Shown: positions 20,138 through 53,000 of the stretch, piece by piece
Layout of the letters: every line of letters begins with the position of its first letter
How positions within the stretch are numbered: the first letter of the stretch is position 1
From: Bilabrum cf. latius
Taxonomy: Eukaryota
Assembly (NCBI GenBank): GCA_965178125.1
Contig: OZ237752.1
Coordinates: forward strand, 434,001-498,000
Length of the DNA stretch: 64,000 nucleotides
Reading direction: 5' to 3'
Position numbers and translations under genes: made by a program
The notes under the pieces: model-generated
What the model saw: only the letters and a program-made list of their open reading frames with translations
The model's database searches: none
What the model was told of the DNA's origin: nothing

Positions 20138-20616
20138 ATTGATTGCGAATAGCCTGCGATATACTCGGGCATGATGTGATGCGTCGGACTGACTTTGCGT
20201 AGCTAGTACTTTGGAGGACAGCAATCAATTGGAGAATGACCCATCATCAGATGTGCAATATTCCGGATTAGTCCGAGCGGTGACTTCAACCGCGTCGTCG
20301 CGCCCCGCACGCGTGGGCTCTCTCTTAAGTATTGTGAGTATCGATAATGAGCCGTGATGCTGGCTTGCCGGCTATTTTCCTGGTAGAATGAGTGAGTGCT
20401 GACGAGGCATCGATCTCTGACTATGGTTGCATTCCATCGCAATATGACTCCTTCGAATGTAACTTCATTGCGGCAGCAAAAAGCAAACAAGAATCTTTTG
20501 ACATAGCAACACTACTTATGACCGAAGAGCACACGTAGATAACTGCATGTGCTGGCAAATTGCACGTTGCGCCATCGGTCGGCGAAACACAGACCATCGC
20601 CGCCGGGCCGGCGAAA

Positions 20617-21246: not shown

Positions 21247-21456
21247 TTTGTCGCTTTGAAGATGCAAATTCTTCGGTCTCAAAGAGAAGTCTAGCACATC
21301 TTTCGGAGGTCGAGGTGCCCCAGCGGTGCGCCTTGCGGCTCTCGGGGAAACGCCGCTGGTCGCAACAACGGGGCTGTCGCAATCGGCAAACAAAATCGCA
21401 AATGTACTTCTTCTGAAAAAGAATTTGAACCACGGTGTCTTCAATCATTACAATAA

Positions 21457-23034
21457 TTATGGTTGCAGAGCGGACGCGCCAGCATCCGCTGCCCCGGCAC
21501 CATTCACATCCGAGTGCACAGGCGTCTGCTGCATCGGTGCAGAGCCTCCACCTCCACTCTCGACTTGCCGCTGGTCCTGCTAGCCATCAGCGCCATTCCG
21601 TGTCCAACGCCTGTGAATCTAGGCATTTTCTTCATTGGTACTGCCCGATTTCGCATCCCTATCAGCCCCAGAGCTCCCGCCCAACTGCTGCCGATGCTAG
21701 TGCTAGTGCTAGTGCTAGATCTACTCCTGTTGCTGGTGCTCTCCTCCGTAGGACCAGCCCTGCAGGTCCTCGTCCGTGACTGCGAGCAAATCGTCCTCCT
21801 CATCAGCATCCTCTCCATCGACATGCAGTAGCGGCTTACCGTCCGACTCCAAACCACCCCCTGCACCTGATGTCTTTCCCGAGGAACCGCTGCCACCGGA
21901 AGACCCGTGCCCACTCGTCACAATCTTCACCCGCCGCGGCAGCCCCTGCCCGCGGCTTGCCAGAAGTCGGTCCTCCCTGAAGAAACACAGCAAAACTAGC
22001 CATGCGCACATGCCTACGCACGCGCCGATCGCGGCGCAGTGCATCGACACGGCCAGCCCCGCATCCAGCACCTCGAGCGCCTCCTCTCCTGCTCCCGCTC
22101 CCCCGCCGCTGCCGCTGCCACCGGGCGCTACCTGCGCCCCTCCTGGCTGAGTTCTCATCTGCTCCGCCGCCCGAGACCAAGTCTCTACCAGGGGTCTCTG
22201 CTCTTGTTCCCCATCCCCCATCAGGTAGCCCCCCTCTCCCATCCCCGAAGGGGCCCACACATCGGCGCCCTGCGCATCTGCTGCAGCCATTGCTGTCTCC
22301 TTGACCACCCACAGCCCAGCGAACGCCCCCGCAATGGCGCTGGTGGCTACCAAGTATGGTCTTACAGATGGATGGATCGCGTAGAAGAATTTCCCGGCGA
22401 GTATGTCTCTCGAGCCATTCCGGACCCTGCGGGTGAACCAACGTACTGCGATGCCGTTGGTCGAGTCCACCAAGATCGTAGCAAGCAACGGGCCGGTGGA
22501 ACAGCCAACTATGGCACCTAGTAGGGCCTACCCAGCCAGATGCACCCCATCTAATGTACCAAAACCGAATAAGAGAAGTATAGCTGCGGACCCGGCCAGC
22601 AGCATGGCGTGAGTTTGCGAGAGCACAAACCAGAGAATGCTCTCATGAGATGCTCGTTCCTGCTTGCTCGATTCATATTCAGCTGATTTGCCTTGGTTTC
22701 CGCTTGCTGCACTGGGTTCTGACGCCCCACTGCAGCAAGCAGCACCTCCCTTTGCACATGCCCCCAACACGAGAAGAGATGCCGCGCACCCCGACACAAA
22801 CAAGTCATTTCTGGACTGCAGCAGTCCAAGTGTGATAATACAAAGCACGGCTGCCCCATACGCACCACTTAAACCCTGCAAACGGAAGCAAGGGACAATA
22901 CAATGCTTCTTGACAGTCTATACTGTGTGCTACGAGCTGGGATCACATTCAGATAATCAATTACTCACAGCCCCGCTGGATGACCATATGACCTCATTGG
23001 TTGAGCAAGCGTGCCCTTTATCGTCCTTCACCAT
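21457..23034 (-). CDS. PAP2-superfamily (DOLPP1-like) multi-pass membrane protein with Q/H-rich tail, ~494 aa; intron 22876-22968; 8 in-frame TAG
   Basis: ATG 23034 opens a 22-codon exon, followed by a phase-0 GTGAGT..TTGCAG intron. Several hydrophobic segments. RASHESILWF resembles DOLPP1 PSSHSQFMWF, and GVHLAG*ALLGAIVG resembles PAP2 motif C3 HxxxQVxxG. Ends TAA at 21459-21457. Confidence 0.62.
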
Positions 23035-23615
23035 ACTAATCACTGGTCAATCGTGGAAACTAGGCACGCCGGCTCCATTGCAATTTTTATTTTGTACAGT
23101 GTGGTTTATTATGACATAAAATATACCAGATTATGAAATCCGAATCGGCGACCGATGGCTGCCGACCAGCAGCGAAAGGGTGGCACAGAAAGCGAAGTAA
23201 CGCCTCTCGCTTCGCCAGACCGGTACAACACTCATAGTAGGGCAGGGCAGACCGACGTGGATTGTTGAAGAAGGGGCAAGCGGGCACCAAGCCGAGATTG
23301 ATCCGGAGTGACCGACAAATTGCAGCCAGAAACCAGGTGAGCAATGTATTTGGTGCGTATAGCTCCAATCATCAGCGATTCTTCGACATATTACACACAT
23401 TGGGCATGCCTGCCAACACGATTGCGCACCTTAAGTGGTTGCGGACCGGCGAATCGGTGTCTGTGTAGCCCAGACGTGCACTGCCAGCCCCAGCTCAGCG
23501 TAAGTGACACGTTCACGCTTGACTGACGCCGCAGTTGTGGGCACGACGGTCTGATACGTCGATAAAACCAGGTCATAAAGTTTTCCAGTGGATGGATTTT
23601 AAATAGTAGGCTCCT

Positions 23616-26600
23616 ATGGACGGTGGCAGCGAGGTGAGTCGGTGAAGGGGCAGTTGCGACGCAGTTCCCTTGTTTCTGGAATGAAATTCACCGTGTCTTT
23701 GGGGCCCACGATGTACGAATCGAGTCGTGGGCGGCGTTTGGCCCGCTGATTGTCCAATTCTCGCTCGTTTGGCCAGATCTCACCGCAGGAACCTGCTCCG
23801 GTGGCGTCAAGTTCAAGCAGTGCCGCCTCTACTGGCGCACCCGGAGCAGGTGCTTTGCAAAGTGCCCCACATCAGCCAAATATGCCCTCTGTTGCATCGG
23901 GGGGCACTGGAAGCATGTTAATTGCGCCGGGCCATGCGCTTGGCGGGGGAGTGGCCCCTGTCAGCAGCGCAGGGATCGTGGCGGCTCCCGTGCAACCCCC
24001 CGCGCCTACTCTAGCCGTTTCCGGCCAGATGGGACAGTTGCAATAGGGCTAGTTCCCATAGGCGCTTCCTTCCAATGGCTACATATCTACGGGCATGCCT
24101 GGGCCCCCGTCCGGCCAGGGCGGGATGCTGCTGCATGCGCCCCAGCTCACTATGCCGACCACGGGAGCACCCCCCAGTCAGGCTACGCTGAGCGCGGGCG
24201 CGGCGCCCATGGTGCCGGGCATGGACATACCAGCCGGCGCCGCCCCCCTCGGTACGTCATCTAGCAGTAGCTTCAGCGCCTCGCTGCAGATGCCGCAGGT
24301 GCAGCAGGGTGCTGCCCCGGGGGGGTTCACCCAGGGGTTTGCCCCCCAGTTGGGGTAGGGGGCACCGATGGCCCCGGTGCCAGTCGCCATGCAGGCGTCG
24401 GTCCTGCAGCAGCAGCAGCAGCAGCAGCAACCGATGCAGGTGCAGTCGCAGGTGCCGCCGGCCCCCCTCGCACCGGGACAAGGCACCGCAGCCAGCTCTT
24501 CCATGTGGATCGGAGGCCCAACGGCGGGAGGGATACCGGCAGCGCCACCCGCCCCGAGCGGAGACGGCGCCGAGGAGCTCCCCGAGGAGCTGCAGCACCT
24601 GTGCCTGCCCCCGCCAGAGAACAACCCAGGCTACCCCCAGAGCGTCCTCGAGACAAAGATGCCCCTCTACACGAAGCTGCCCGTCAGGCAGCTGAGGCAG
24701 CTCCTCAGGCACAGGGGCCTCGTCGTGGACGGTGCCAGGAAGACCGTAATCGACAGGGTGAGGCGCTACCTGCGCGGCGAGAAGATCAAGAAGTCGCCCC
24801 GGCCGTCCTCGGGCGCCGGCAAGGGGGACGGCTCCTCGGGTGGGAGGTCGACCCCGAAGAAATCAGCCGCCAGCGGAACCGGTGGCGCCGCGCAGTCCTC
24901 CTCGAGGGTGGCCAAGGTCAAGGCGCCCTCCCATCGGGGACGCAAGGCACAGTCGGCGGCCGTGTCGGGAGGCCGCGGGCGAGGGGGCTCCAAGGCGGCG
25001 TCGGGGGTGCTCAGCCTGGCAGTCGGAGGCAACCTCGCGATGCAGCACTTCCCCGTGTGCACCAGGCTAGCTGACGTGCAGGCGGCCAGCATCGGGGCCT
25101 GCGCCAAGCCGGCCATCGTCCCATACCCTCTGACGGCAGGGCGCGTGGCTGAGCTGGCGTGGGCCGTGGAGGACGCCACATCCGCTGACGTGGATGACGT
25201 GTGGCCGGGGATCACGGCAGACGACCAGAGGGGCAGGCTGGAGCTCGCGCTGCAGCTGCACGCGCGGAGGCTGCAGGTGCAGCGAGAGCGGGAGCAGGCG
25301 TAGGAGAAGGGTTTGAAGAAGAGCGATGGTGCAGGATCATCTTCTGCCAGTGGCGCGGCTGCATCATCGGAGCAGGGCGCTGCCGGGGACCAGGCCTTCA
25401 ATCCCAGCATCGACGTGCTTGCCGCGGGCGATCCTGCCCTCGTGGGAGTGGGGGACGAGGAAGGCGTCTCGGAGCGGACAGGCCCCGCGGGGCTGTACGA
25501 CCGCACCATCGGGCACGCCATCCTGAGGCAGGGGCAGTTCTCTGCCAGGTTTCTTGAGGTGGAGGAGGACGAGGTGCCCGAGACTCACGCTAGGGCTTGC
25601 AGCAACGACGGGAGGGAGGCGAGGATCCTGGACAACTTTGCCTTCTACGACGAGAGCGGGTGAGCGAACCTTCAACGCACGCGCATGCATTCGTATGACA
25701 TTTCCCCCCCTGTCAGCCATGGCGGCTTCGGCTGAGCATGCCGCCTCCGCGCCGTCCAGTTTCCCAACTACCCCCTCACCAATCCTTGCCCCCATTCACT
25801 GTCACCGCAGCTAGCCAGTCCCCCTTGAGTACCTCGACGTGGCGATGGAGAGGGCAGCTGCCGCCAGCCAGGCGGTCTCACAGACCACCGCGCAGCAGAT
25901 GCTGCTGCCCGGACTCATCGGGTTTGGGAGCCTCGTGCCGGTGCCTGACAGCAGGCAAGCTGCCACCGCCATGCCGGAGGTGCCGCAGCACAGCCGCGCG
26001 GCCGCCCCCGAGCTGGAGGAGCTGGTCACGACGGGAGGCAGGCACGCCCGCTCGGCCAACATGTGGCTGCCCGGGGGCAGCCTTGCCAAGAACCGCAAGC
26101 GGTCAGCGCAATCGGTGAGTTCGGTGTGGCCGCCCAGCAGAGAGTCCCCAATCCCACAGTTGTACATGTTTCATTGCTACCGGATTTGCAGGGACCAGTA
26201 TTTCCGTATTGCCTATGGTCTCTATTGTCCACTTTCAAATCTCGCAGATCGGCGGAATGAGCGGTTTCAATGACGATGCCAAGAGGGCGCGAGTGGAAGC
26301 GGGTCCATTGGACCAACCGTTCATGCAGTACTGCGTCGAGTCAGTCATCCTCGAGTCGCAGTCCGACAAGATCTCCATGAAGGCCATTCGACTTGAGGTT
26401 GAGGTGAGCTCTTGCTTGCAGCGTAACGGTGGAAGCAGGCCTTGAATTCATGTGCTGCGCGTGTTTGCTTGCTTCATCTTCGATGGCTTTATCATGTTTC
26501 ACCCTGCCAGTCGCGCGACCAGTTCGACATTTGATCTGTCTCTTCCTCGACCTCGATCGCAGAACCGCATGGGTCGCAGTCTGCAGGACCACAAACACAC

Positions 26601-29600
26601 CCTGAAGGAGATGGTCATGGCAGCCCTAGAGAAGAAAACCAGCGGGCAACTTTAGGCCACCGCGCCGCCCGCTCGTCTAGCCCCACCCCCACCCGAGGAG
26701 CACGCCCACGCCCCCCAAGGTCCACCCAGAGTTGTTCTCCGTGGCATCGTAGAATACGCCATGGACTTCACCAGGGATGGAGATAAGAGCTCTCCGTGCC
26801 TGTGGGTGCGCACTCAAAAGTCGTGGTACCGTGTTGGGGACCTGCAAGGCACGGTGAGGCCCTCGCCGGCCTACCGCAGGCTGTTTCGCCCCACTCTCAT
26901 GCGCCTCGAAGTAGCCGCGAGGGTGCGGCGGATCCTGGCCCAGGCCCTGTTGGATGCCAGGGTGCGCGCTGATAGGCAGGAAGCGATCAATTCGGGGGCG
27001 AGGGCGCAGCTGAAGATGATTGAGGCCGAGCAACAGCGCATGCAGGACGCTGCCGTCGCAGGCGGTGCAGATGATGGCGCAGCTGCTGGATAGCAGGCGA
27101 TGGAAGATGACACGAACGCCTCTGGAAGCGGCAGCTCGGCAGACGTGGGTGGCGCATCCGCCCCAAGCCCAGTCCCCGCCACGCCCACCTCGCCCGCCCC
27201 CGCGGACGCCTTGCAGCAGCCCCAGGACGATTCAGCCCTGGAGGTCCCCGTCCACCTTGAGATGAAGCTGTCGACCGCAGACCTCCTCCGCAAGCTCGAA
27301 GAGGACAGCGCGGAGGCGTGGAGGAGAGAGAAAGCAAAAGAGCAGCAGAGGGCGATAGAGAGGGACGCTAAGCTGGCCGAAATCTTGAAGGTGGCTGTAT
27401 CCGCCGACGTGTCACGGGCCTGGCTGGTGGCCAGGGAGAAGCGGCGGCAGTCGCTGGAGGAAGCCGGTGCGCCGCTGTTGGCCGCTCTGGGGGAGCTGCA
27501 GGCTCGGCTGCTCGGAAGCAGTGCCCCGGTTGCAGCAGAGACAAGCGCGGCAGCGAGTTCGTCCGCAATCATGGAGGCGCCAGCATCCACCGGAGCTGCA
27601 GCTCTAGGGGCAGGCCCATCCTTTGCCAAGTCGTACTCAGGCATCGAGGCCGGCACAGTGCCAGTGGAAGCGCGCCTAGCTGAACTAGCCCAGCAGCTGC
27701 AGGGCTCTTTGGCTTCTGCAGGCGGCCAGGCAGCCATGGAGGGTGGAAGTAGCAGTGGGGCTAGCTCCTCTAGCGGTGACGCCAGCACGGCCTCCATCTC
27801 CGGCCTCCTGCCCCCTGCACTGCGCGCGAGCACGCGCGACATCGTCGAGCTGCTGCAGAGGGTGCCCCCCTCTAGTGTGGCCAGGTCTGCGTCCCCCATC
27901 CATGGCCTCGTACTCCTCCGCGCCCTGCGGCAAGCCAAGCCTGTGTTGGATGCGGTAGTTGAGGCCACACCGGAGGAGCAGGTGGTCGCCCACAGGGTGT
28001 CTGCTGCACTCGAGGCCGTCTCAAAGGCGGGCGAGCTGCCCCGTGCATCCAGCGCGTTCAGCTGCGTGCCGATCAGCGGCGCGTGGATCGCAGAACACGC
28101 GGTCTTCGTGCAGCGCGCAGCCGCTGCTATGGATGAGCAGCTCAAGCTCATGGCCAAGCAGGTGCAGACAGACCAATCCGCCGCAGCATTGACCGGCACC
28201 GCATCTGGTGCGGGCTCTGCTTCGCCTGCAGGTACCCCTACCGTCGCGCAGTCCCTTGTGGCCATGGCTCAGAGCCCCGAAGCGGCTAAGAGGGCGGCCG
28301 ACAGGCTCCTGGCCGCGGCAGGCGCGCGCTTGCTGCCGCCGCTTAAGCGAGATGAGGCTCAGGGGGCGCGCAAGTTCGGGCCATGGCCTGCGGACGGTGA
28401 CGCAGGGGCAGCGGCAGCCTCGTCGGTCTCTCTGCATTCGAGCGATGATGAAGCCAAGGTGCTGGGAGAGTTAGAAGAGGCGAAGAAGATCCTGCAGCAA
28501 GCTGACGAGGCAGAGGCAGATGCTCGTGCCGAGGCGGCCAGCAAGGCAGCGGCAGCCGCAGCGACTGCTGCTCCTCCTACAGGCACCAGGGCCGCCAGCA
28601 AGGCAGCTGGCCTGCAGCTGACCCTGCCATTCGGACTTACGGCGCCCACCGTGCCGCAGTCCCTGATCGCAGGATACCTGGCCCCACCCCTTGCATCGTC
28701 CGCTGTTGCCTCTTTGGCACTGGCGCATGCCGCGCTCGCAAGGTTTAGCACGCTTCCATCCAAGCAGTTGGCGCTTGCAGCCGCCAAGCACGCTCCCGAC
28801 ATCGGGACGCTCGCGGGCCAGCTCCCCCAGACCGCAAGCTCCGAGCCCTTTCTGGACATCTGCGGGGTTGCGGCAAGCCGGGCGGAGCTCATGGGCAAGG
28901 CCGTGGAGGACGCTGGTCTTGCGGCCAGGCTTGCCGACATAGTGTCGGTCAGTCGGGCGCGGGCGGCCTTCGGTGACGAGGACGCTCTCCAGTGTCTCGC
29001 GCACTGCGGCGCCTTTCTGCTTGCGGTGGCCAAGGGTCAGGGCGCGGCGAACGCCGCAGGGTTCCCCCTCCCTTCTAGCGCCGTGCCCGACCTGGCAGAG
29101 CTCTTCGACAACGCGCGGTCTGCGATCCTGGCAGTCACCGGCACTGAGCCAGAGGTGCTGGAGGAGGAGCTGCAGTCCCAGGTGGCACTGCTAGGTGGCA
29201 CCGCCACGGTCGGAAGCGGCCTCGGCTCTGGCGATGTCGCTGGTGCCGGCGGCGGGATCTTTGCCGAGGCAGGGGAGCTGCTGGGCCGCCTAAATGCTCG
29301 CGCTTCTGCCTAGTCGCGAGACGAAATCGAGGCGTCGGTCACGGAGCTCCTCGCTCCCTTGCTGAAGGTCGCCGGCGGGTCCTCCTCGTAGCCCGCCGCG
29401 AGCGACGGCGACGAAGGAGGCGAGGGTGAGGGCGAGGACAACCGCGGGCCGGCCTGGATCAAGGCCCAGACCGCGAGTGCCCCGGGCCGCCGCCCCCTCA
29501 TGGCAGCTCGCGCAGCCCTTAAGGACGCGGAGAAGGCCGCCTACAAGACCCACTCTGCCTGCGTCGGCGAAAAGTATCGGTTGAGCAGGAGGGCCAGGGA

Positions 29601-32600
29601 GGAGCTCCGCAAGCTGAGGAGGGAGGCAGCCAAGAAGGCAGCCGCCGCCGAGGCAGCAAGGAAGCGAAGGGAGCGGGCGCTCCTCAAGCCGAAGGGGGAG
29701 GGCAGAAGCAAGGCCAAGGCCAAGGGCAAGGGGCGCGGGACAAACCCTTCCAAATCTGGCTCGCAGGGAGGTGGGGTAGGAGGCGGACGTACCAACTCGG
29801 ACGAGGACGGGGACGACCTGGAGGTGCCCGACGATATCGACTCCGAGTCCGAGTCGACGGGGCCGGGCGCCCGTGGCGCTGATGGCGGCCCCGGCGGCAA
29901 GTCGATGACGCCGCAGGCGATCGCGCAGCGTGCTGCCCGGCGCGCCGCCAGGCTCCGTGCCCTGCCTGTGCCCCGGCTGCCAACCACGATCGACGAGGAG
30001 CACCTCATGCTGGTGGCCATCGGGGAGCTGCCCCACGACAGGGATCTCTTGGCGCAGCTCAAGGCGAACTTCGCCATCGACGATAGGAAGAAAGCCAAGA
30101 GGGGCAATTCAAAGGCACCAGCACCGGCCCCATCATCGTCATCATCATCGTCTTCGGATGCCGCTGCGGCTGCCTCGGAGGCCGCCGCCAGTAGCAGCAA
30201 GGCAGACGAACCCAGGAAGCGAAGGTCGCCTCCCACGCTCTGGGAGCTGCTCACCCCCATGCAGGCCCGGGACCTGCTGCCTCCCCTCAGCGCCGCCCCG
30301 CCCACCCGAGAGCTCCTGCCGGCCGTTCCTGACGCGCACAGAGGAGCCGTTGTGTCATGCTGGATCCAGCTGTGCAGGCTCGCCCCACTGCTGCGGGTAA
30401 GCCCCATCGGCCTCGAGGCGCTTGCGCAGGCCCTTTTGGCTCCGGATAGCGAGTCTGCCCTCCTGGCAGAGGTATTCTCCAGGGGCACACGGGCCATGCT
30501 GGGGCTGCCTCTGGACAGGGGGCAGGCACTGCGCGCGGCTGCCGCGCAGCAGTCGGCTGCCTACTAGAGACAGAGGGCGGGCGCCAAGAAACTGCTCGTT
30601 GCCTGCAGGGAAGCCGCGAGGAACAAGCACATCGGGCTCAAGACGTTCGGGTGCGTGCCACCGACGCAACTGGCTGACGGGCCGGGCGCTCCTCTGTACG
30701 GTGTGCTCTCGGTGGCCGACGACACTGTGACCCACGACACCGCTGTGCACGCAGTGTTTGCTTAGGATGACACGTGCGATGCCTACGAGTCGCAGGCAGA
30801 GCTGATCCAGGGCAGGGCAGAGGGCCAGGTGCCGTCTGAGGAGGACATCGCGGCCAAGCTTGGCAGCCTGTCGTCGGCGCAGATCGACGGGCAGCAGGCC
30901 ATGGATGCGGAAGATGGCGAGAAGGACAGCGATGAGGACGACGAGGCCAGCGAGGAGAAGCAGGGCCCTAAGTACTACCTGACCAAGCGACAGAAAGAGG
31001 CCCGAAGGAGGAGGCAGGTGCTGCTGCTTGAGGCGCAGAGAGATGCCATGGTGGAGCAGGAGGTGGCTGCGGCTGGAAGGCTCTTTGGCGGAGGCTCAGA
31101 GGCGGCCGCCGGCGGCTCTACATCTGCTTCGGAGCCTGGCTTGCGCAGCGGTGTGCTGCAGAGCGGCTGGCTCAAGTGGATCAGGCAGCAGCGCCGAGAG
31201 ACCACCGAGACCAGGAGTGAGGAAGCGGCGGCGCACGAGGTGCCAGTGCAGTGGCTCGGCGGAGAGGCACTATCTCGCACCATGAGGCTTGGCGAGCAGC
31301 CTCGGTCCATCCGAAAGGCATTTGAGAGCACGCAGGGGCTTTGGGGGGCGCGGGTGGATCCGTATACCGGCGGAGTGAGGCAGGAAGTTGGCATGTGCGA
31401 CGCACACGACGCCACTCTGGCGGGCCTGATGACCGCGGATTGCGGCTCTTGGCAGGAGGTGCTCAGGACGGCCATGTTGCGAGGCCTCGAAGCAGAGGAC
31501 TTTAACCGAATCGCCTGGGGGAATTACCTGACCACAGAGAAGGATCGCCGAGCCGATGCTTTGAAGCTGCTGCAGCAGCTAGAGGCGGATCTGGCAGAGG
31601 GTGGCAGCGGCGGCATGGCAGCGGATTCAGGCGGTGTCATCGGACAAACAAATGGAGGCGAGCATGGCGGGAGCGCCTCCTCTGGCAGTGAACCGGGAGC
31701 CAGCGCCGTGCCGGAATCGGCAGGCGAGCGCGCCGCCACGGCCCTGCTTGGTGCCCCGGCTGCGGCTGGCCAGCAGGCCATGGACGCAGGTGAGGCGTCC
31801 TCCGGGGCTGGCACCGGCACATCCGATTCGGGTGCCGGCATCGACGGCAGCAAGTTGGAGCCGGGTGCCTGCCCGAGTGCCGTACTGGCTGCCGGGGCCG
31901 GCTCGGTGCTCACGGGCCCGACCGGCTGGCGCATGTCGCCGGCGATGGCCAACTGCTACAAGATCCTGTCGGACCTGATGGCAGATCCCCGCGTGCGCAA
32001 GTTCTTGATGGAAGTGGCTGAGGTGATCGAGGACGCGGCAGCGAGGGGGCAGGATGGAGTCAGCCCCGAGGATGATCCGGTGTTCTCCGTGCAGGGACTC
32101 AAGACCACCAAGGCCAAGGCTGCCATCAACGAGGTCAAGCAGATTGCCGTCGCAGAGGCCGGCGGGCACGTCCACGACCGAGATAAGCTTGCGGCAATCC
32201 CTGCCCTCGACTTGCAGATTGTCTGCTGGAGGCTGCTGTCTGGGTACTACTGCGAGGACCACCCGTCCACTGCAGTCGCCAAGCAGAGAGCGAAGGAGCA
32301 GGAGGCAGAGTGGAGGAAAAAGGTGGCCAGCGGTGAGGCAGTGGAAGAAGACGACGACGACGATGACGACGAGGATGATGACGATGATGACGATGATGAT
32401 GACGAAGAGGAAGATGCCAGCGGTGCAGGTGGTGACGGTGATGACGAAGGCGCCGATGAGGATGGCGATGACCAGGAGGAGGACGGCGAGGCCGCTGTTG
32501 GCGGTGAGGACACGGAGGAGGGCGCTGCCTCTGGTGCCAAGAAGAGCAAGAAGGACGGCAATAGAGGCAAGCCCAGGAGGCCCAAGTGGCTGAGGACCCT

Positions 32601-37923: not shown

Positions 37924-40122
37924 AAAAGTCGTATCGTTCCATTCAGTCATCACCACCACCTTCGATATCTCGCACCGAACCCTCGTCCAAAGCTGAATCC
38001 CCGTGGCACTTATCCAACATCGGATTGAGGCTCCCGAGTTCACTCAGGATGATCCAGCAACACCTATACCCCGTCATGGTGGGGTTGTGGTGTAGCTAGA
38101 GCTCCTGGATCTTCGGTAAATGCAAGGAACTTTTTGTTCCTCCAGAATTTCACAAAACTTCACAATGCTATACATGTGGGTGGGCATTCAAATTGGGTTG
38201 CTTGCATTGTGTGGTGGGATAATCCACCTAGTTGTCCACCTGCGAAAGTACACATGAACTTGGGAGTGGCTGTCGCGGTAGGCATTTCGAACACAATGTC
38301 CATTCAATACAAGTAACAGGCATACAGACACGCCAAATCCGAGGCCTCGGATGGTGATGCATGAATTGTTTGGGCTCAGCACGAAGTTGTCAGAGTCTGG
38401 TTGAACAGTGTTTCCTCATTGGCCTGGCTCCAAATCGAACAACAAGACTTAAGACGCAGATAAAAGGCAAATTGAAGCTCAGCACACTGCTCGGGTCTTC
38501 TTAGAGGTTAAAATTTAGTTTGTCGTCACGAAGCGAGCCGCCCTTGCGGGTAGGCTCAAGTCAGTGGATTGACAGATAAATGGTCTCTTCACCGCAGCTG
38601 CCGTTGCCACATATCGCAGCAATTATCTGGACAAAACCAATATCGAATCATTTCAAGCTGTCAACACGGGCAAGGGGTCAGTGAACTTTGAAGACTATTC
38701 AAGCACACGTTTTCCGATCATGGCCACGCAGCCGGTGAAGGCCGGGCTCAAGAACACGGACCAATGTGTTATTCTTCATTCCCCAAATATACAAGATTAA
38801 CAAAGAAAATGCTATCGTCAACCTACACGGCCGAGGCAACCACACAGCTGCAGTCGTGTATGGCATGACCCAAACAATGATAACCCTCAGATACTATCTA
38901 GCGTTGGAAGCAAGTATCGTCAGTGCAGAAGCCACGAAGACTATCTGTTCTCCGAACCAAAAGGTGCCTCGGTCTCTTCAGCGGGCCAACTTTTGTGGTA
39001 ACAGCAAACCAAGTCACGAAAAGTGTTTACACGCATATGCTGCACGAATCTCACCTTTTAAGAACGTAGCAATAGTGATACACTCTGATTCGACAGGAAA
39101 ATCTGTGCAACTGCGGGTTTAGTAAGGAAGAAGCTCAAGGAATGGATAGTCACGGTGGCCGTAGAGACATGGGTTCAAGCTGATGCCAACAGCGGCCGCG
39201 AATCAACACCCCTCAAACAATGTAGATAAGTTACTCCATGTGCCACGTAATGCGACAGTCAGGTAGAGCTAATATGAGTTTCTCATAGAGGTGTATGCAG
39301 TGAACCGCAACAGTCCCAAACATACAGGCTACTCCAGGTCAGACAAGGCTGAAACAATAGAATCCTCAGTGCCAATGGCTCGGAATCCTTTAGCATAATT
39401 GTTCAGTTCATCACTCCTGGTGCAGACCCGGGACGGGCAGGCGCGGCAAACATGCACAAGCCGCCAGAGCACACAAACAGAACACTATATCGGTCGTCGG
39501 ACTAAAAAGAATGCGTTCTCGTCACTCCCTAAGGTAGGAAGACCGTCGTAATTAGCATAAATGAGGTTCTTCATTCGACCTACAACGGACAAACACTGAT
39601 CCCTAATCTACGATTCGATTCAGGCCAAGGGCTGACTGTCAATCCGTACACACCTGCCGCGGCCGTACAGTACAGCGAGGGATCAAACACGGCTGAGGAC
39701 TTACAGCTATTTCATAATGCACGGGTTTCACCAGTGATGAAATCGCCTGAAATTCTACTCCATTTGGGTGCCTAATTGTGCCTTCAGCGCAGGCAGCGGC
39801 GGCAGCGGCTGTCATAAACTGCACCTTACAAAATATGTAATTTATTCAGCGCTCGGTTCCTAGACGTGGGAAAGAGAGCGCCAAGGCAACGCAAACTTGA
39901 AGTGGGATATCTTGCTGCCCCGGCATTTTATCTTTGTTGTGTGCAGGCCAGGCTGCAGTACTACACGCCCTGCTGGCTGTTAGCTCGACGGAGACTTCCG
40001 TTGGACAGCTCTTTCTTGCAGCGGGTACATTCAACAGCTGAAGAGTTCGCTTGCCTAGGCGGAGCAGTTACCTTGATTGCTCAAGATAAGCTCTTTCATA
40101 CACGTTGAAGTTGTTATTAAGT

Positions 40123-43100: not shown

Positions 43101-46100
43101 CCATGTCGTTCCGCGGAAGAGAGGCCCGCATGGAGACCAAGCTGGCTGGTCCTGGCGGGAAAGAGATCACTGTGGGTCTCTCGGCGTTCGGAGACGTGGA
43201 GATATCGTCTCCGAAGAAGAAGAAGGAGAAGGCGTCTGGGGAGGGCGGCGAGAAGACCTACCAGGACCGCTTCTGGCAGCAAGCAAGCAGTGGAGAGGCC
43301 GCAAACTGCTGGGACGACTACTCCCTGTTCCTGTTTGCACCGGGCAATATACTCCGGCAGGGTTGCTTCGCGCTGGCGCACAACAAGTGGTTCGATCGAG
43401 TGATCCTGGCGCTGATTGCCATATCCTCCATCCTGCTGGCCATCGATGAGCCGAGGCTTGCGAGCTGCAAGGACCTGCCCACTTCCGACCCATCCAGCTG
43501 CAAAGTGCTCTCGGACACGCTTTTCTGGATGGACGTAGTCATATCGGGCTTCTTCGTCCTCGAGATGGTGGTCAAAGTCGTGGCCTTGGGCTTTGTGATC
43601 GGTGAGGACGCCTACCTCCGGTCCAGCTGGAACATCCTGGATTTCGTGATCGTGATCATATCCATCGTGTCACTGGCAGTAGGAGACGGCGGGTCTCAGC
43701 TCAAGGCCCTCAAGAGCATGCGGGCTCTTCGCGCCCTCAGGCCGCTGCGGGTGGTGGCTCGAAACCCGGGACTTCGACTGGTGGTCAACGCAATCTTCGG
43801 CTCCTTGCCAAAGGTGAGCAACGTGGCCCTGGTGAACTTCCTGTTCTTCCTCGTATTCGCAGTCATCGGAGTGCAGAACTTCATGGGGGCGCTCAATCGG
43901 TGCAACGACGAGTCCGTGTCAGAGGCGAACCAGTGCGTGGGCACGTACAACGCCACCGGGGACGCATGCATGCAGCTGCCGACTCCCGAGGAATCAGATG
44001 CTTGCGCACAGTCTCCGGTGGGAGCACCGTTTCCGCGCATTTGGGGACCGCCACCCTTCCATTTTGACAACGTGCTCAACTCCCTATTGACCGTGTGGGA
44101 GGTTGCCACGGGGGAGATGTGGCCGGATATCATGTACGAAGCAGTGGACGCCGTGGGACCGGACCAGCCACAGGTGCGAGACAACAACCCCGCGGCTGCC
44201 CTGTACTTCCTGGCCATCAACGTGGTCTTCGCCTTCTTCATGCTGGAGATTTTCACCGGTATTGTCATAGACAACTTCAACAACATCAAGGAGACTGCTT
44301 CTGGGTCTGCCCTGCTGACGGAGGACCAGCGCAAGTGGGTGGCCTCCACCAAGATGATGCTGTCCGTGAAGCCAGAAGAAGCCGTGAAGCCGCCTCCACC
44401 GAGCGGTTTTGATTGGTTTGATGCGTGCAGGTAGTGGTGCTGTGATGTGGCGCAGGCGGTGTGGTTCGAGTGGACGATCATGGCACTGATTCTGCTCAAT
44501 ACGGCAGTGTTGGCGGCTAGAACCTTCGGCCAGTCTCAACAGGTGGAGCTGGGCTTTGAGATTGCGAACTATGTCTTTGCTGCGCTGTTCATGCTCGAGG
44601 CCGCCATCAAGCTGCTCGGTCTCGGCCTGCAGCAGTACTTCCGCAAGCGCTGGAACATCTTCGACTTTGTGCTGGTGCTGGCTAGCATCGTTGGCATCGC
44701 TGCGAATTTCGGGTCCGTCGCCACTCTGTTCAGGATCGTGCGTGTCGCGAGGGTGGTCCGCCTCGTGAAGGTGTCAAAGGGGCTGCAACGTATGTTCAGG
44801 ACGCTCATCTTCGCCATCCCGCAGCTGATTAACGTGTTTGGGGTGCTGCTGCTGGTCTTCTTCATCTTCGCCTGCGTTGGCATGAACCTGTTCGGCGGGA
44901 TCAAGCATGGCGAATTCCTGAACGGCGATGCCAACTTTGATACTTTCTTTGTGGCCATGCTGACTCTGTTCCGCATCTCCACGGGTGAGTCGTACAACGG
45001 CATCATGCACGACTGCATGGTCCGGCCTCCGTTCTGCGTAGATGGGCAGAACTGCGGAGACGTCATCATCGCCCCGCTGTACTTCGTCTTCTTCTACATC
45101 ATGTCGGCGTTCATCCTGTTGAACCTGCTGGTCGCCATCATCCTGGACCAGTTCCAGGACACCAAGAGGCTAGAGGAGCGGGCTGGGTCCTTCGTTCTGA
45201 CTCCCTCCATGCTCGAGCATTTCCAGGGCACCTGGCAGACCGTCGACCCGGACGCGAGCGGTTTCGTCAAGTACGATGGCCTCATGAAGCTGGTCACGTC
45301 TCTCGATTACCCCTTAGGCCTGCGGGGTCACCCTGCCATCCGCACTGACAAGCAGCTGGTGCCCGAGGCAACCAGGCTGCTGTCGCTGCTCGACGTGCCG
45401 CACGTGAGCGGGGAGAGGTACCCCATGCTGGTGGTGCTGCAGTCGCTGGCCAACAACGCGGGGGAGCCGGAGTGGTCCGAGCTGGAGGTTGCGGCAACTG
45501 TCATGAACGTCGATGGTGACATCAAGTCGTTCGGTGGGATCTAGCAAGCTATGGCGGTGCGGGCGATCCAGAAAACCGCCCGGATTTGGCTCGCTGCCTT
45601 GGGGCTACGAAACAAAAGTGGGATCAACAAGCAGCCGAGCGAATCAAGCGTTTCTCAAGAACTGGAGCTCGCCACAAAGGGCGATGAAGCGCCTCAGGCT
45701 GCACAAACCGAGGGAGGGGCTCACGCCAGCGATGGAGGGGGTGCTGCCGCAGCTGCTGGGGATGCAGAGCTGAACAATAATGATACGCTCGAAATGATCG
45801 CCGAAGATAAGTGGCGGCACGAAAGTGGACACGCGGGTGCGCTGTCCAAGGTTAGTCCAGAGGGGCCTGTTGAATCGTTGCGGGTCGCAGGGGGAAAGCA
45901 GGAACGGTCAACTGCAGCAGCGAGTGGATCGGATCCCAAGACTGCTGTGGATAGCTCACGGGGTGCTCGTGCAACCGATGGTTTGAGTATTGTCGAGGAT
46001 ATGCCAGCCCACTCAAAGAGTGGCAATGAGATAGGCCGCCCGCCACAGCACGATAGATCCAAGTCGCCGGCAGGCGTGGTTCGATTGCCTCCGATAGGGG

Positions 46101-46111
46101 GCACTAATTGA
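40123..46111 (+). CDS. Four-domain voltage-gated cation channel alpha subunit with EEEE filter (Cav-like), ~1,940 aa; introns 40195-40268 and 40616-40707; TAG at 41048, 41060, 44432, 45542
   Basis: Four S4 sensors: LRTFRVLRPLR, LRTFRLLRVFK, MRALRALRPLR, FRIVRVARVVR. Pore loops: ITLEGW, LTGENW, ATGEMW, STGESY. EF-hand-like WQTVDPDASGFV and IQ-like AVRAIQKTAR follow domain IV. Ends TGA TGA. The first exon is inferred from phase-compatible splice sites. Confidence 0.94.
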
Positions 46112-46149
46112 TGACGTTTATATATCTTTGATAACTTTGTACACCGTAG

Positions 46150-46167
46150 CCGGCGCCGTGAAAGGTC
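46150..46167 (+). repeat. Left terminal inverted repeat core of the transposon
   Basis: CCGGCGCCGTGAAAGGTC, the exact reverse complement of 50027-50044. Confidence 0.9.
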
Positions 46168-47025
46168 CGCCATTATTGGCATTCCGAGTCCCAAAATCGC
46201 GACCATCGTGCCTTTAGGCTCCCATTGCTGAGAACTGGACCAATTTCTTGGGTAAATTTACATTGCAAAAATATCTAATGTAACATTTAAATGTAATGCA
46301 GTCCCAACGGAGCCATGCAATTCGCAGCATTAGACTGAAAACGAGTCGTGCTTGCGACCACCATTTTTGGCGACCACCCCCAGCCCAAGATTTTACTCGC
46401 TGGCGAGGGGTGCCAGATGCACGCACCGTGTGCCGCCAAAAAAGCTTTTCTTTGGTTTCTGTTGGTACTTAGTAGTTGAACACATACTTGACAACATGTT
46501 ATCAGGTCGCCAGGCTCATTCATTAGCAATCTAGCGAAATTTGGCTGCCATTCCAACACACGTCGGTTCAAACGGTTCCAAAATTTGCAGGGCATTTATA
46601 CCTTAGCGCAATAGACTTTTAACACACTGGCACTACTGTTGAGATACAAGGGTATTGAATGCAATATCATGTGGAGGATTCCGTCTAAGTTTGCGAGAAG
46701 AACGAGTGGGAGGCGAAAAAGTGGCTCCAGCGGCGCGTCCGAAGTTGGGTCTCGGGGTGCAAGTGCCCCTGGTGGGAGTGCCTCGTCTCGGCGTCACGAG
46801 CAGAAATCCGCCAAACTCAGGCTCATCGATCAAATTGAGTACGGTATTGTTATGGTTGATGGAATTGCATGGGCTGTAGCCGGCTATTTTCGGGGTACCG
46901 TACAATCTGCCGCAGAGGCACCGGAAGCCATGAATGTGGCACTCATTGACAGTATCCATGCATCCGTGGTATGCTTGACGAGGTGTTGGTTGAAAATCAT
47001 TCCATGGTGATGTGGACGAGCTTAA

Positions 47026-49583
47026 ATAATTATACAGAGGTATAATAGGGCCACAATCGGGCTTGCGTCCTGTGCAGAATTGGCCATGCACGGTGTTGCT
47101 GCAAGGCCACTGATATCAGCCTTCATCGCTTATTTGTGCTTAGCCTTCGCAGAAGCATCTCAGTCAATCCCAAAATTCTCATTGGAGTCTTGTAAACCTA
47201 TATCTAGCGTTTCGGTTGCTAGCAAGTAGTCAAGAAGCAGCCCGTCCCATGCGGCCAGTTCGAGCCGACGCGCTGGGTCCAAGCGTAAACGGCAAGAGGA
47301 CAATGCAAATAAATCGACAAAAGATGATGATTTACGTGATTTGTTGGGCGAAGCATAGGCCAGCGATGATGAGATGGACTATGTCGGCGATTCAGACGAG
47401 GACGAGCCGGTATCCAGTCGGTCTGCAACTTTGAGCCGGCCTCCGGTGCAGCATCGTAGGAGGCAGTAGGCTCACCAAGCAAAGCGGCGCAGAATAGAGC
47501 AATATGAAAGTATGTTTCCTATGGACAAAATTGCATCGTTGGTTGATGAGCCTGAATATAGGTACTTCTTGAATGACCGGGTTGTGATTGGCGGTGATGG
47601 GATCCCGATCGCTCGCACAGCGGCTACTCATGTGGCTGCTACTGAGTATGTCAAAGGCTGGATGACGGCTCATCATGAACAACCAATATCTCCAATACGC
47701 ATTCTGTGCTCGCTGGTGCCTCTCGATATTGCATTTTCGTGGCGAGGCACTGCAGCGGCAGAGGTAGCTGGCCAGGCAGCCGGCCAGCCGGCAGCGACCA
47801 ACCAATGGACATGCCAGTTGCCATGATGTTCCTGGCCGTGGTATTGACTCGGTCTCTCATTCGACCCCGGATACCTTTAGAATTGCTGCAATCAAAGTAG
47901 TTCCTGGTGCGCATGAAAGACGATATCGTAGTGCAAGACTGGAATCGGTTCCATCGAAACTTGTCTTTCGCCGGGAGGTTGCAGGAGGCTCCGGCACCCC
48001 TGCTGGCGGAGGAGCGCGCCACAATGAGGCTAGGGAGTGTGGGCAGTCCTCGCGAGCGGGTACTCATAGAATATCCACCAGGCATGCTAGATGCAGTTTC
48101 AGAGTACTTTCGTGCCGCTACTTTGAGCCCAAAGAGCATCGCCGTCGATGAGATGATGGTGATGGCGTACGGCCGAAATCGGGCATGTGTCATCATGCCG
48201 AACAAGCCCACATCGCATGGCTTTAAGCTATGGGCAGCTGCACGAAAAGACGGGTATGTGTACCATTTGGATCTAGCAACATCTGTTGCCGATGATACAC
48301 GATAGTACAGAGGGAAGACTGAGTACTCGTATAAGGTAGCAACCGGCAGCGGCACCGCTGCCGGGTAGCTGACCCGGATGGACCTGCAAACAGCAGCTGT
48401 TGCGTCGAAGGCAATGGGCAAAAACTTGAACGGGGGCCTCCTAGCGGTGGATAACTACTTTACATCGGCTCCACTGTGTGATTGGGCCACCAGCAAAGGC
48501 CTTCGGGTTGTTGGCACGCTTCGCCAAGGCAAAGTGAGCGGTGAGCTGTACCACGCGATTGGCTAGCTGAACAGACGAACCCCAGGCGAACGCGGGCATA
48601 CTGTGAAGCGCGCTCTTCTTGGGCCCAGCAAAGTATCTTTATGTAATGTAACAGCTGGTGATGTTTTTGATGCGAGTGAGCTTCCTGCGGGATCGCTGCT
48701 GGCCGAAGAGGACCTTGGCAGTCGGGGCCTGTTGAGCCCTGGCCAGACAGTAGCCTTTGACTCGCCAGATGATTCAGCTTATGGGATGCAAGTTTTTGGA
48801 TACTGTGACCGCGAACCATTTCTTATGGCTTCTAACATTCCTACGAAGTACTTTGTTTGCTTGGTAAAGACGCTACGGAGAGATGGTGGCGACCTGAGTG
48901 TGGTGAACGCGCCCCTCGTGTCCGTCCTCTACAACAAGTACATGGGGGGTGTGGATCTAGCTGACAAGTTCCGGACGCAACTTTCGCTAACAAATTCATT
49001 CCAGGGAGAGACTAGGGCATACTTAAGAGTGTGGGAAGGTTTAATGGAGCAAGTTATCGTCAATACGTACATCATCTGGGTCAACTTGGAGGCACGTCGA
49101 CTGCTACGCCACGGACCCACTCGTCGGCAAGCTGCTGGAGCTAGCAGCAAATCCGTTCAGGAACAGGTTTAGCACATGGTGCGGCATCGACAGGCTCGTG
49201 GTATGTTTGTACAGCTGTTGTATGACGAATTGATGCGTCCTTACCGACATGCACGTGCAGGAACTCGCGGTGCTGCAACCTCAGCTGGGATGCGTGCGGA
49301 GGCGACCCCCGGGAACCTTGGATGTAGAAAGCAGCACGTGGTAGCTACGCTGCTGGGCTCGCTCCATTTGATTGGAAAGGAGTAGTTACAAGCAGGACTG
49401 ATTAATTTTCTCAGTAGCGGACGATCAAAGAGCCGTCGAGGGGGGTGCAGCGCCAAGTGCAAGGGCTCCAGATGCAGCAAGCGGCAGCATCATTAGTCGG
49501 TTTCTTCCTACAAAGTGTGTTCACGCTGCTGCAAGTTCATTTGTGGGGATTGTAAAGAATCTCTGTATCATCTGGAAACATGA
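47026..49583 (+). pseudogene. piggyBac-type transposase (DDE_Tnp_1_7-like plus C-terminal Cys-rich domain) with 10 in-frame TAG and one apparent frameshift near 47730-47826
   Basis: Catalytic D/D/D in IAVDEMMV..MPNKPTSHGFKLW, LAVDNYFTS..VGTLR and YNKYMGGVDLADK. Cys-rich tail CSAKCKGSRC..CSRCCKFICGDC ends TGA 49581. The acidic/basic N-terminal part (open 47026-47826) is in a different frame from the core. An upstream exon from ATG 46668 with intron 46969-47037 is possible. The frameshift may be real decay or an assembly indel. Confidence 0.8.
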
Positions 49584-50026
49584 TTTGGCTGTGATGTAGA
49601 TTAAGTTGATATAAATGCCAAGTAGATAGATGCACAAGAATCGGGTCACGAAGCACGTAATTCATGGCAGGTCCACATTCGATTCAATATCTTGTAAACC
49701 GTTTGGTAACTTTTTTGCGCTAAGACTTATATATAATATAACCACCGATTAATTCAAAAAAGCTTGTTTATTTTGCAAGCATGCCTGCTTGGACAAACTT
49801 CTGCAGTATCAAAGTAGCCCTTCCTGAAAATCGAGCGTTTGGTTTCATGACCACCAAGTATACTATTGTCGCAAGTTTATCAATGAGTAACACTCGCAGT
49901 CGATAGTTAACTTATACAATTTTCAATATCTTGATATTATTTTAGGATTACTTGAATGGTACGCGAGAATCGGTAAGGTGAATTGAAGGTACCGATATCG
50001 GCGATACCGGTCGGTCGGCCAAATCC

Positions 50027-50044
50027 GACCTTTCACGGCGCCGG
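50027..50044 (-). repeat. Right terminal inverted repeat core of the transposon
   Basis: GACCTTTCACGGCGCCGG, the exact reverse complement of 46150-46167. Confidence 0.9.
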
Positions 50045-50099
50045 GTAGACTGCTACAGTAATAATAAAATCATGAGAACCTCAAACTGGCGCGTTAGTT

Positions 50100-53000
50100 T
50101 TAGAAGCGGTCCGGGGAGCTCAGGAACCTGGACGGGGACAGCATCGGCGGCCTGGACACTCGCCGCAGATTCGATACAGAGCCAGACCTCTGCTGCCTCC
50201 TCTGAGTCGACCTGCGACCGACTGGTGACATGACGCCCACGGACCCAGCCTCGTACGGTGTGCCGCGGTGGTCATCGACACCACCCCCCTCATCCCAGTG
50301 CCTCGACTCTCCTCTCGCTGCCGGGCTACCCGGCACGCTCCCATCATCGTCCTCCAAATGGCTGTGCGCAGCAACCCCAGCCCCCCCCTCTCCATCCCCA
50401 CCGACTGCACGCCCCTGCGACAGTGCAGTGCCCCGCACATCCCCTTCGCCGGCAAGGCGCACGCCCTCCACATCCCCGTGCCCGAACTCGCCACCAACCG
50501 CCGCCCCCAATATGCCGGCCCCTGTGCTGGAATAGATCGATCCTCCAGATAGGGTTTCCTGGCTAGTGCCACCGTGCAGTGCACCTTCAGACGTCGACAG
50601 GCCACTGCGAGCCCCGCCTTCGGACCCTGCAGTCCCGTGCCCTGACCCGGCACCGGAGCTGCCAAGGTCATTTGAGGCACCGGACCCGCGCCGGCCGCCC
50701 GTGCCGCTCTTCTGCGACTCGTGCCCCCCTGCACCCAAAGAGCCTCTCAGCAGACCCATGCGGCCGGGAGTCAGGCCCGTGATCACCACTGACTGCCGCA
50801 GGCCAGGCACATCCATCCTGGGGCGGGTCGCGCTGCTGCGACTCCGCTGAGCACGAGCAGAAGAAGATAGACCCGAAGAGGACGAAGATGAAGATGAAGA
50901 TGAAGATGAGGCACGATGGGAACCGCCAGCGGCTTCAAACTCCCCGTGCAGCGACCTCGACGTGGTCCTCCCGCCGCCCTCCCCGTCTCCCTCCAAGGCC
51001 TGCTTCCCACCGAATACACCGCCTCTCAGCGCTCCAGTGCCCACCGCGTCCTGTCCGCGGCTCGACCCTGCCAGGGCCCGTACCAGCCGATTCCCGATGC
51101 CAGGCACGGACGACGCCGCTGCCTCAGCCTCCTGCGCGGCACGGCGGGAGGGAGACAGAATCACGAGGTCATGCGCCCCCGAAAGCACGTCAGGCGCAGC
51201 GGCGTGGGACTCGCGCGAGGCCTCGTCTACAGTGTCTCCGTCGATGCTGCTCCGCCCGACGATCCCGCCGGCCGCCCTGCGTCCCTGCTGGCCAGGGCTC
51301 ACGTCGAAGGAGCCCGACAGCCCTCCGATGCCCTCAGAGGAAGACCCCCTCGAGCCCAGCCTGAGCTTGTCTCCGCCCCTGACTCCGGCTGGAGGCAGCT
51401 GGGTGTGGCCCTCTCCGGAGGAGGAAATCACGCGGGAAGCCGCGCTCGCTGCCGCAGCAGCCGCGGCTGCTGCAGACGCAGTTGGGGAAGAAGCCGAGCC
51501 CCGCTGGCTCTCTCCCGACTCGGCGGGGTGTGCATCCCCATCCATGGGACTCGAGGCCAGCGGCATCGGAGGCATCCTCGGAGACAGCCCGCTGGCCCCG
51601 TCCTCTTCACCCAGACTGGGAGGAAGAGCAGAGGGCCCGCTGCTGTCAGAGTGCTGCGAGCGCTCCCGCAGCATCACGGCACTGAGGCCATCTGCGCCCA
51701 TCTACGCCAAGGACCCCTCAAACTCTAGCCTGCGCTGGACAGAGCGCGCCCCAAGTCGCATCGAGTCCGACACGCTGGGCGACAGCACAAAGCCGCCCGC
51801 GAGGTCCTCCAGCGTAGCGCGGGGGTGAGAGGACAGCGACTCGCCGACGCACGACCCGTCAAGAGGCGCCCTGCAAGGGGTGAGGCCGTCATGATCCGAG
51901 GTTGCAGCCGAGACAGCGCGCCCCGCAGGCTTGGCTTCGCTCGCAAATAGGCCTGCATAGGCGAGAGGCCCGCCGGCCGCGTCGATAAGTGCCAGCGTAG
52001 TCGGCGCGCCAGTTCCAACGGCTCCATGCGCGGCAGCCTGCAAGCCAGGGAACGTGCCCAGCCGCCCGGTCTCTGTGTCTGGGGATGCCTGCACGCCGTT
52101 CTTCGCCCGTGCCTGCACCTCCAGGTCCATCAGGAGCTGCTCGTCGGCGGCCTTTTCCCTCTCTAGCCTCGCTACATCACGGGCGGATCGCTTCCGGCCC
52201 GCGCTGCGAGTCGCACCGCCACGGCCCCGCGAAGACGAAGAGGACGCAGACGAGGCATATGAGCGCCCAGACGCACCTCTGTCGATTCTCCTGCGCTTGG
52301 CACCCCTAGAATCGGCAGAGCCTGGCGTTTCACCACCCCTGGCGGCGGGGGCAGCCCGATGCATGGTCTTGCCACGGGGGATGGGAGGAGACCACGCAAT
52401 CTGGGAGCGAAGCCTCCTGCGGCCAAACGGGGTGGCATCTGGCAGCGTCGGCATGGAGTGCTCCTGTTCCCCGTCCATTGCCGAGAGAGACATGCCGCTG
52501 CTCGATGGCGGTCTCGCCATTCCGTTGGGCAGAGCGGTGGCGGAGTCGCGGCCATTGCGGGAGCGGCGCTGCAGGCCAGGAGACCCGTGCAGAATAGCGG
52601 AACCGGCGCCGCGCGAAGCAGGCCGGCCCGCAGCACCGTGGCCCCTGGCCCCTGCCCCGATAGCCGCCACGCTGGCCACATCTAGGAGAGCGTCCCCATC
52701 CAGGTGCTGCTGCCCCAGCGCGCTGACAGAGGTGCCCGCTCGCCCCGACACACCCGCTCTGGGGGCAGCGGTATCGGTCCCAGCCCCTCCTGATCCACCG
52801 GTGGATCCGCCCTGCTGGATGCCCCCGTGCCCAGCCACACCCCACATGGCGACGTTCTGCCCGGTGGGTTCTGCAGCCACGTGGCCGGACTCGCCCGCCG
52901 TCTCGTCCACAGAGGCCGTCCGCGAGTCGCGCCCGGCCCCAGTCCCTCCTGCCCTGGATGACCGCCCCTTCCGCCTTCTTGACGACCTCCTGGGCCTGTA

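Follow-up and report, generated by a model that had tools for sequence, protein, structure and literature searches.

A GC-rich nuclear genome segment in which UAG encodes glutamine and UAA is probably kept as a stop codon

We analysed the meaning of the stop codons in a 64-kb window from Bilabrum cf. latius (assembly GCA_965178125.1, contig OZ237752.1, positions 434,001 to 498,000 of the forward strand; coordinates below are those of the window). The window is GC-rich eukaryotic nuclear genome DNA, with a guanine plus cytosine (GC) content of 61.9% over the 64 kb. The nuclear code of this organism is very probably of the NCBI table 15 type, in which UAG is read as glutamine and both UAA and UGA terminate translation. 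The initial annotation had proposed that UAG and UAA are uncoupled and that UAA is still a stop, and this is supported: 76 TAG and no TAA were found in frame, and two genes end in TAA with a break in composition at that codon. The main residual doubt is that UAA may be merely avoided rather than serve to release the chain.

TAG is a sense codon in this window. The 76 in-frame TAG are spread over 17,255 codons of 13 gene segments, several of which are supported by Pfam, and the same codons include no in-frame TGA. The 13 segments, some of them open reading frames (ORFs) without a named family, are as follows.

358-1623, plus strand: carboxylesterase-family exon (Pfam COesterase, E 2.9e-63); 1 TAG, TGA end
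2145-18221, plus strand: giant ORF of 5358 codons; 27 TAG, 0 TAA, TGA end; no Pfam family
18446-20137, plus strand: FAD-linked oxidase (FAD_binding_4/ALO); 1 TAG, TGA end; RNA-like contig at 18335-20216
21460-22875, minus strand: last exon of a membrane-protein-like gene ('PAP2-like'); 472 codons, 8 TAG; frame open to 22956
23789-25663, plus strand: last exon of a SAP-domain protein; 5 TAG, TGA end; 5' exons 23204-23333 and 23532-23631 joined over GT..AG introns
26446-37923, plus strand: 3825-codon ORF; 12 TAG, 0 TAA, TGA end; RNA-like contigs 26561-32334 and 32419-37703, unspliced
40700-46111, plus strand: main exon of a four-domain voltage-gated cation channel (Pfam Ion_trans, E 1.3e-213); 4 TAG, TGA TGA end
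47679-49583, plus strand: piggyBac-like transposase ORF (Pfam DDE_Tnp_1_7); 7 TAG, 0 TAA, no in-frame TGA, TGA end
50103-55394, minus strand: coding sequence of an R2R3 MYB protein (Pfam Myb_DNA-binding, E 2.8e-31); 1764 codons, 1 TAG, 0 TAA
56192-59464, plus strand: 1090-codon ORF; 7 TAG, TGA TGA end
60453-60884, plus strand: last exon of Ran GTPase (Pfam Ras); ...DEDDDL followed by TGA
61379-62563, plus strand: nitrilase/CN-hydrolase gene (Pfam CN_hydrolase, E 3e-58); 1 TAG, TGA end
63098-63592, minus strand: NmrA-like C-terminal exon; 2 TAG, TGA end

With the standard stops the longest ORF of the window is 1673 codons. If TAG is taken as sense, ORFs with lengths of 5358, 3825, 1803 and 1774 codons emerge, while treating TAA in this way instead brings almost no gain. 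Four public sequencing runs (including X1, X5 and X10) were aligned to positions 18201-38200. Run X1 gave long DNA-like contigs over this region and run X10 represents a relative that is ~88-90% identical to the window, while run X5 gave gene-sized contigs, one of which skips two gaps bounded by GT..AG, connecting 23333 with 23532 and 23631 with 23787. These two joints suggest that X5 is complementary DNA (cDNA); its label reads 'RNA? (probably DNA)'. The X5 contigs at 18335-20216, 21414-22875, 26561-32334 and 32419-37703 follow the window collinearly and show 0 differences from it. Since they run collinearly over TAG-bearing ORFs, the TAG codons are present in the mature message. Furthermore, residues 370-497 and 500-568 of the piggyBac-like ORF are covered by database proteins of 93-94% identity. 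These fragments break off and resume at TAG 498 and TAG 569, the pattern that gene calling under the standard code would produce.

Sequence comparison shows that TAG stands for glutamine. Database proteins 88-97% identical to the products of the window cover three TAG sites, and all three have glutamine (Q) at that position. A fourth site lies in an internal repeat of the 3825-codon ORF, where the motif G-Q-Q-A-M-D/E occurs four times and its first Q is CAG in three copies and TAG in one. The four sites are given below.

9450-9452, plus strand: TAG at codon 2436 of the giant ORF; Q in the 97% identical protein P0271
10881-10883, plus strand: TAG at codon 2913 of the giant ORF; Q in the 88% identical protein P0273
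51702-51704, minus strand: TAG at codon 1241 of the MYB gene; Q in the 91% identical protein P0274
27091-27093, plus strand: TAG in the motif copy G-TAG-Q-A-M-E; the other three copies read G-CAG-Q-A-M-D

TAG is also found within His/Gln and Gln runs, such as (TAG CAC)x3 beside CAG CAA CAG, or TAC TAG TAG CAG TAG ATG. If TAG is glutamine, it makes up 10.7% of the glutamine codons. The residues neighbouring TAG are enriched in H, Y and Q, and no amino-acid profile clearly fits these statistics. Serine, the meaning of UAG in Scotinosphaera, was considered, with two TAG following serine runs, but was rejected given the glutamine in the close relatives and in the internal repeat.

The behaviour of TAA is quite different, and TAA is not a sense codon in this window. 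It had been claimed that no TAA lies inside any exon although CAA is common, and both parts hold, with 0 in-frame TAA in the 17,255 codons and with 110 CAA against 525 CAG. In the +1 and +2 frames of these segments there are 26 and 49 TAA, and the non-genic DNA contains 111 in 12,691 bases. Every other A-ending codon is in use, the rarest sense codon being TTA with 25 occurrences among the 17,255. If TAA related to TAG as CAA does to CAG, 15.9 in-frame TAA would be expected (Poisson probability of none 1.2e-7), and even under the lowest A-ending to G-ending ratio of any codon pair (CTA/CTG = 0.118) the expectation is 8.9 (P 1.3e-4). The 95% upper bound on the frequency of in-frame TAA in gene bodies is 1.7e-4 per codon. 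When TGA was taken as the sole stop, eight long plus-strand ORFs kept identical limits and still contained 0 TAA; therefore the absence of TAA does not depend on how the ORFs were defined. Under the same TGA-only stop the MYB frame gains extra TAA, which lie upstream of the first ATG or in the tail, and the upstream stretch that carries them is non-coding in composition (GC 0.49, codon score -0.29).

TAA is instead found at the ends of genes. Two of the 13 gene segments end in TAA and the other 11 in TGA, as had been stated at the outset. The accompanying statement that none ends in TAG stands as a count (0/13) but carries no independent weight, being true by construction once TAG is taken as sense. 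The terminal sequences first described for the two TAA genes were also found as given, namely TAA TTA TTG TAA TGA on the minus strand from 21459 to 21445 for the PAP2-like gene, and TAA AAC TAA from 50102 on the minus strand for MYB, where the next in-frame TGA follows at 50072-50070.

21457-21459, minus strand: TAA ending the PAP2-like ORF, the first in-frame non-sense codon after at least 472 codons; crossed by an X5 contig
21445-21456, minus strand: backup TTA TTG TAA TGA after the PAP2-like stop, as read from the sequence
50100-50102, minus strand: TAA ending the MYB gene, as given by codon counts and the composition break
50070-50099, minus strand: AAC TAA CGC GCC AGT TTG AGG TTC TCA TGA after the MYB stop, with a second TAA and then the first in-frame TGA

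The switch from coding to non-coding composition falls exactly at both TAA codons. Across the PAP2-like TAA, GC falls from 0.67 to 0.39 (90 nucleotides, nt) and the codon score from +0.07 to -0.36, and across the MYB TAA, GC falls from 0.66 to 0.50 (90 nt) and the codon score from +0.11 to -0.44. As a sliding measure, the codon-usage score was too weak for drawing gene limits. If the TAA of the tails were sense codons, they would make up two of four codons in one tail and two of ten in the other, with probabilities near 2e-7 and 1e-6. Since the tails hold four TAA in 14 codons, against an upper bound of 1.7e-4 in gene bodies, they are irreconcilable with rare sense codons. UGA is a terminator and not a sense codon, ending 11 of the 13 segments including Ran with its conserved ...DEDDDL. 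The ratio of terminal TAA to TGA, 2:11 (0.18), stands beside a CAA:CAG bias of 0.21, which suggests that the two are used as expected for interchangeable stops under GC pressure. The X5 contig 21414-22875 runs unspliced across the PAP2-like TAA and ends 43 nt beyond it, a distance to be read with the limit that such contigs do not fix true RNA ends. The C-terminus of MYB lies outside its closest database relative, P0274, whose contig ends earlier, and two scans of JGI metagenome contigs, one using the PAP2-like protein and the other the C-terminal half of MYB, found no relative.

A number of observations weigh against a code in which UAG is glutamine and UAA a stop. The caution voiced at the start, that there are just two TAA termini and that both lie in poorly conserved tails, still holds, the two tails being unconserved and of low complexity. 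In-frame TGA codons follow only 4 (PAP2-like) and 10 (MYB) codons beyond the TAA, so that read-through would add merely a short tail, and on the DNA alone both TAA may be read through to the next TGA. The sole fixed, conserved C-terminus of the window is that of Ran, and it ends in TGA. The 20 kb to which the runs were aligned take in the PAP2-like terminus and leave the MYB terminus outside. Within the 64 kb we found no eRF1 gene, no tRNA (transfer RNA) gene and no match to an Rfam family. As to the amino acid, more distant homologues are mixed opposite TAG, with Q at 2 of 9 sites. The 55% identical protein P0272 has Q, V and T at three TAG sites in a gappy, low-complexity alignment, and the piggyBac paralogues (48-61% identical) have Q, R, T, K, T and S. 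The best channel homologues reach 47-55% identity, and among them the residues in the four TAG columns vary (commonest P, R, R and K), leaving these columns uninformative on the amino acid.

The alternative that fares best against these data is that UAA in effect lacks an assignment or is being abandoned. The organism would then have an eRF1 specific for UGA and only a tRNA with the anticodon CUA, TAA would be shunned throughout, and ribosomes would stall at UAA or slowly read through to the backup TGA. We regard this as improbable. It would account for the rarity of TAA at gene ends (2/13), for the close in-frame TGA behind both TAA and for the use of TGA at the conserved end of Ran. However, if UAA could not be read, having two in-frame copies in each tail would carry a cost, and the terminal TAA:TGA ratio of 0.18 matches the A:G bias of 0.21 and leaves no extra avoidance of TAA to be explained. 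The UAG-only codes described in the two papers that we draw on also keep UAA as a stop (PMC5304391; PMC11687900).

It is also quite improbable that TAG has a dual, context-dependent meaning, glutamine inside genes and stop near their 3' ends, so that some genes would end at an earlier TAG than assumed here. With TAG read as sense no gene can appear to end in TAG, and several genes do have TAG within their last 100-250 codons. Against this, no TAG lies past the conserved domain and before the TGA in Ran, the carboxylesterase, the nitrilase or the FAD oxidase, and the window gave no positive sign of termination at TAG.

Ordinary code 6, in which UAA and UAG both encode glutamine and UGA is the sole stop, was named in the initial annotation, combined with GC-biased usage, as a case that would refute its proposal, and within the window it is rejected. 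In such a code TAA would be rare because of the high GC, and the TAA at the two gene ends would be glutamines in short tails. This would fit the in-frame TGA within 4 and 10 codons of the two TAA ends, the 11 of 13 genes that end in TGA and the high GC at third codon positions (GC3). It does not fit the count of 0 in-frame TAA where 15.9 (from CAA:CAG) or 8.9 (from the lowest ratio of A-ending to G-ending codons) are expected, while all other A-ending codons are used, the rarest 25 times. Nor does it fit the tails, where 14 codons include four TAA while the 17,255 body codons include none, or a composition that turns non-coding at the TAA and not at the TGA. We therefore hold code 6 to be very improbable. 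Finally, the chance that TAG is not reassigned at all, and that the 76 TAG come from pseudogenes with genuine stops, from sequencing errors or from missed introns, is next to nil and this explanation is refuted within the window, for it has nothing in its favour except that most TAG sites lie in poorly conserved columns, and it is opposed by the 76 TAG with no TAA and no TGA in 17,255 codons of 13 genes, by the retention of TAG in unspliced RNA-like contigs, by three differently labelled runs that are identical in sequence with 0 differences, and by the Q that close relatives have at TAG sites.

The mechanism by which UAG is read as glutamine with UAA kept as a stop would be as follows. A tRNA-Gln with the anticodon CUA, probably derived from a mutated copy of a tRNA-Gln(CUG) gene, is predicted to read UAG. 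Such an anticodon could not pair with UAA, owing to a C:A mismatch at the wobble position, and UAA would be left to the release factor. The eRF1 would have lost or weakened its recognition of UAG and would have kept that of UAA and UGA, as the initial annotation had also proposed. The pairing rule is as set out in the papers on related codes, in which the anticodon CUA reads UAG and not UAA whereas UUA would read both (PMC5304391; PMC11687900). Since CUA reads UAG alone, a change limited to UAG needs just the tRNA-Gln(CUA) and an eRF1 that does not compete at UAG.

The code type is already known, though rare, and the organism of this window is probably a further example. The closest match is the fornicate Iotanema spirale, for which UAG is reported as glutamine with UAA and UGA as stops and UAA as the primary terminator, together with a T32G substitution in the GTS motif of its eRF1 (PMC5304391). 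The window resembles it in that UAG is glutamine and in that UAA is not a sense codon and probably serves as a terminator together with UGA. The predicted mechanism would also be the same, a tRNA-Gln(CUA) and a UAG-sparing eRF1, both of which we infer here. The two differ in that UAA is primary in I. spirale, whereas TGA ends 11 and TAA 2 of the 13 segments in the window. They differ further in that I. spirale is an anaerobe, while the window has 62% GC and encodes an FAD-linked oxidase of the ALO family. Oxidases of the FAD_binding_4/ALO family use oxygen.

Among ciliates, Hartmannula sinica, Trochilia petrani and Protocruzia tuzeti are reported to have reassigned UAG alone to glutamine and to have kept UAA as a stop (PMC11687900). 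The UAG-only reassignment to glutamine is thus shared with the window. In the phyllopharyngean species covered by the same paper, the stop used most often is UAA and the one used least often is UGA, and GC ranges from 27.4 to 53.6% (PMC11687900), in contrast to the 62% GC, the ORFs of up to 16 kb and the TGA-dominated ends seen here. The code 6 type, with both UAA and UAG as glutamine, is reported from many ciliates, hexamitin diplomonads, Ulvophyceae, Streblomastix and Amoeboaphelidium (PMC11687900; PMC5304391). The window shares with it the glutamine at UAG and the termination at UGA, but differs in having 0 in-frame TAA, where ~16 would be expected, and two genes that end in TAA. Other uncoupled codes assign UAG to a different amino acid, leucine in the rhizarian exLh and serine in Scotinosphaera (PMC5304391; PMC11687900). 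In these too UAG is sense and UAA stays a stop, and the difference lies in the amino acid, here glutamine at three of three sites in close relatives and in the internal repeat.

The GC content, the dominance of TGA, the FAD oxidase and the 16-kb ORFs are unlike a ciliate macronucleus or an anaerobic fornicate. A full-text literature search, made without the organism name, returned besides Iotanema no GC-rich non-ciliate in which UAG alone is glutamine, a result that is not proof that such a case is unpublished. We see about even chances that the window represents an independent, undescribed origin of a nuclear code with UAG alone changed to glutamine, in a GC-rich, aerobic, non-ciliate eukaryote. 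If the origin is independent, loss of UAG driven by AT pressure (codon capture) offers no explanation, since a GC content of 62% should favour UAG over UAA. An independent origin would instead point to a route through an ambiguous intermediate, with an eRF1 able to discriminate A from G in the third position following UA.

The remainder of the window offers further observations on the genes and their surroundings. The number of introns is low; one 5' splice site lies behind the first exon of the channel gene, whose upstream exon ends near 40615, and another lies in Ran. Three very long low-complexity ORFs in the window are without any Pfam family. Homologues of the channel are scattered, with Durusdinium, Hondaea, Andalucia and Mesostigma among the named matches. 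The standard-code fragment of the FAD oxidase, compared with the Atlas clusters, matches solely bacterial FAD_binding_4 proteins. The piggyBac fragments at 93-94% identity, together with others at 48-62%, point to a set of copies, in this organism or relatives of it, that share the code. In Ran (59754-60884, plus strand) the N-terminal exon is unusually divergent, and the first intron opens after TAC TAG|GTGAGT, with TAG at the splice junction.

The label 'PAP2-like' that had been given to the gene at 21457-22956 was not borne out, Pfam giving no match to the whole ORF at E<=0.001 or to the N-terminal 269 residues at E<=1. This gene, on the minus strand, and the SAP-domain gene on the plus strand are divergent and ~330 nt apart (22875-23204), the first RNA-supported SAP exon starting at 23204. 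Past 22875, 13 letters of the X5 contig for this PAP2-like gene fail to align, possibly coming from an upstream exon. A joint in run X10 from 21114 to 21456 (side 37), beside the PAP2-like TAA, was too weak and was left unused. Between this gene and the FAD oxidase lies a 700-nt X5 contig (20477-21176) with no convincing ORF or Pfam match; the longest ORF candidate there is 20617-21246 on the minus strand, with a TGA end and a low GC3.

Several repeats were also found. A perfect 14-nt tandem repeat of GATGGGAGGGATGC at 62582-62922 (24.4 copies, 100% matches) starts 19 nt past the TGA of the nitrilase gene. Directly after the TGA of the 3825-codon ORF, a short dispersed repeat at 37921-38116 is matched by many separate contigs of runs X1, X5, X7 and X10, with differences and a high summed depth. 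Within the same ORF, a stretch of Asp/Glu codon repeats at 35120-35347 produced many loose ends and spurious joints in each of the four runs, being a low-complexity repeat common to other loci. Two low-GC islands (38000-40000 and 46000-50000, 0.49-0.50 against ~0.63 elsewhere) lie where the stretch upstream of the channel gene and the transposon are located.

The reassignment has a practical side, in that a standard-code annotation of this organism would truncate most of its long genes at TAG, and the database proteins P0121, P0123, P0271 and P0273 are already cut at TAG. Nuclear codes that split UAG from UAA are known in few lineages, those named in the papers at hand being Iotanema, a rhizarian, Scotinosphaera, Protocruzia and a few phyllopharyngean ciliates (PMC5304391; PMC11687900). 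Such codes demonstrate that UAG and UAA can be distinguished by the ribosome, the tRNAs and eRF1, and a further case would be an independent data point on how these codes arise. The present one combines a high GC content and UGA-dominated termination with genomic DNA that is available and with several related strains that have already been sequenced. If the reading of the code given here is true, this organism would provide a natural pair of eRF1 and tRNA-Gln(CUA) for study.

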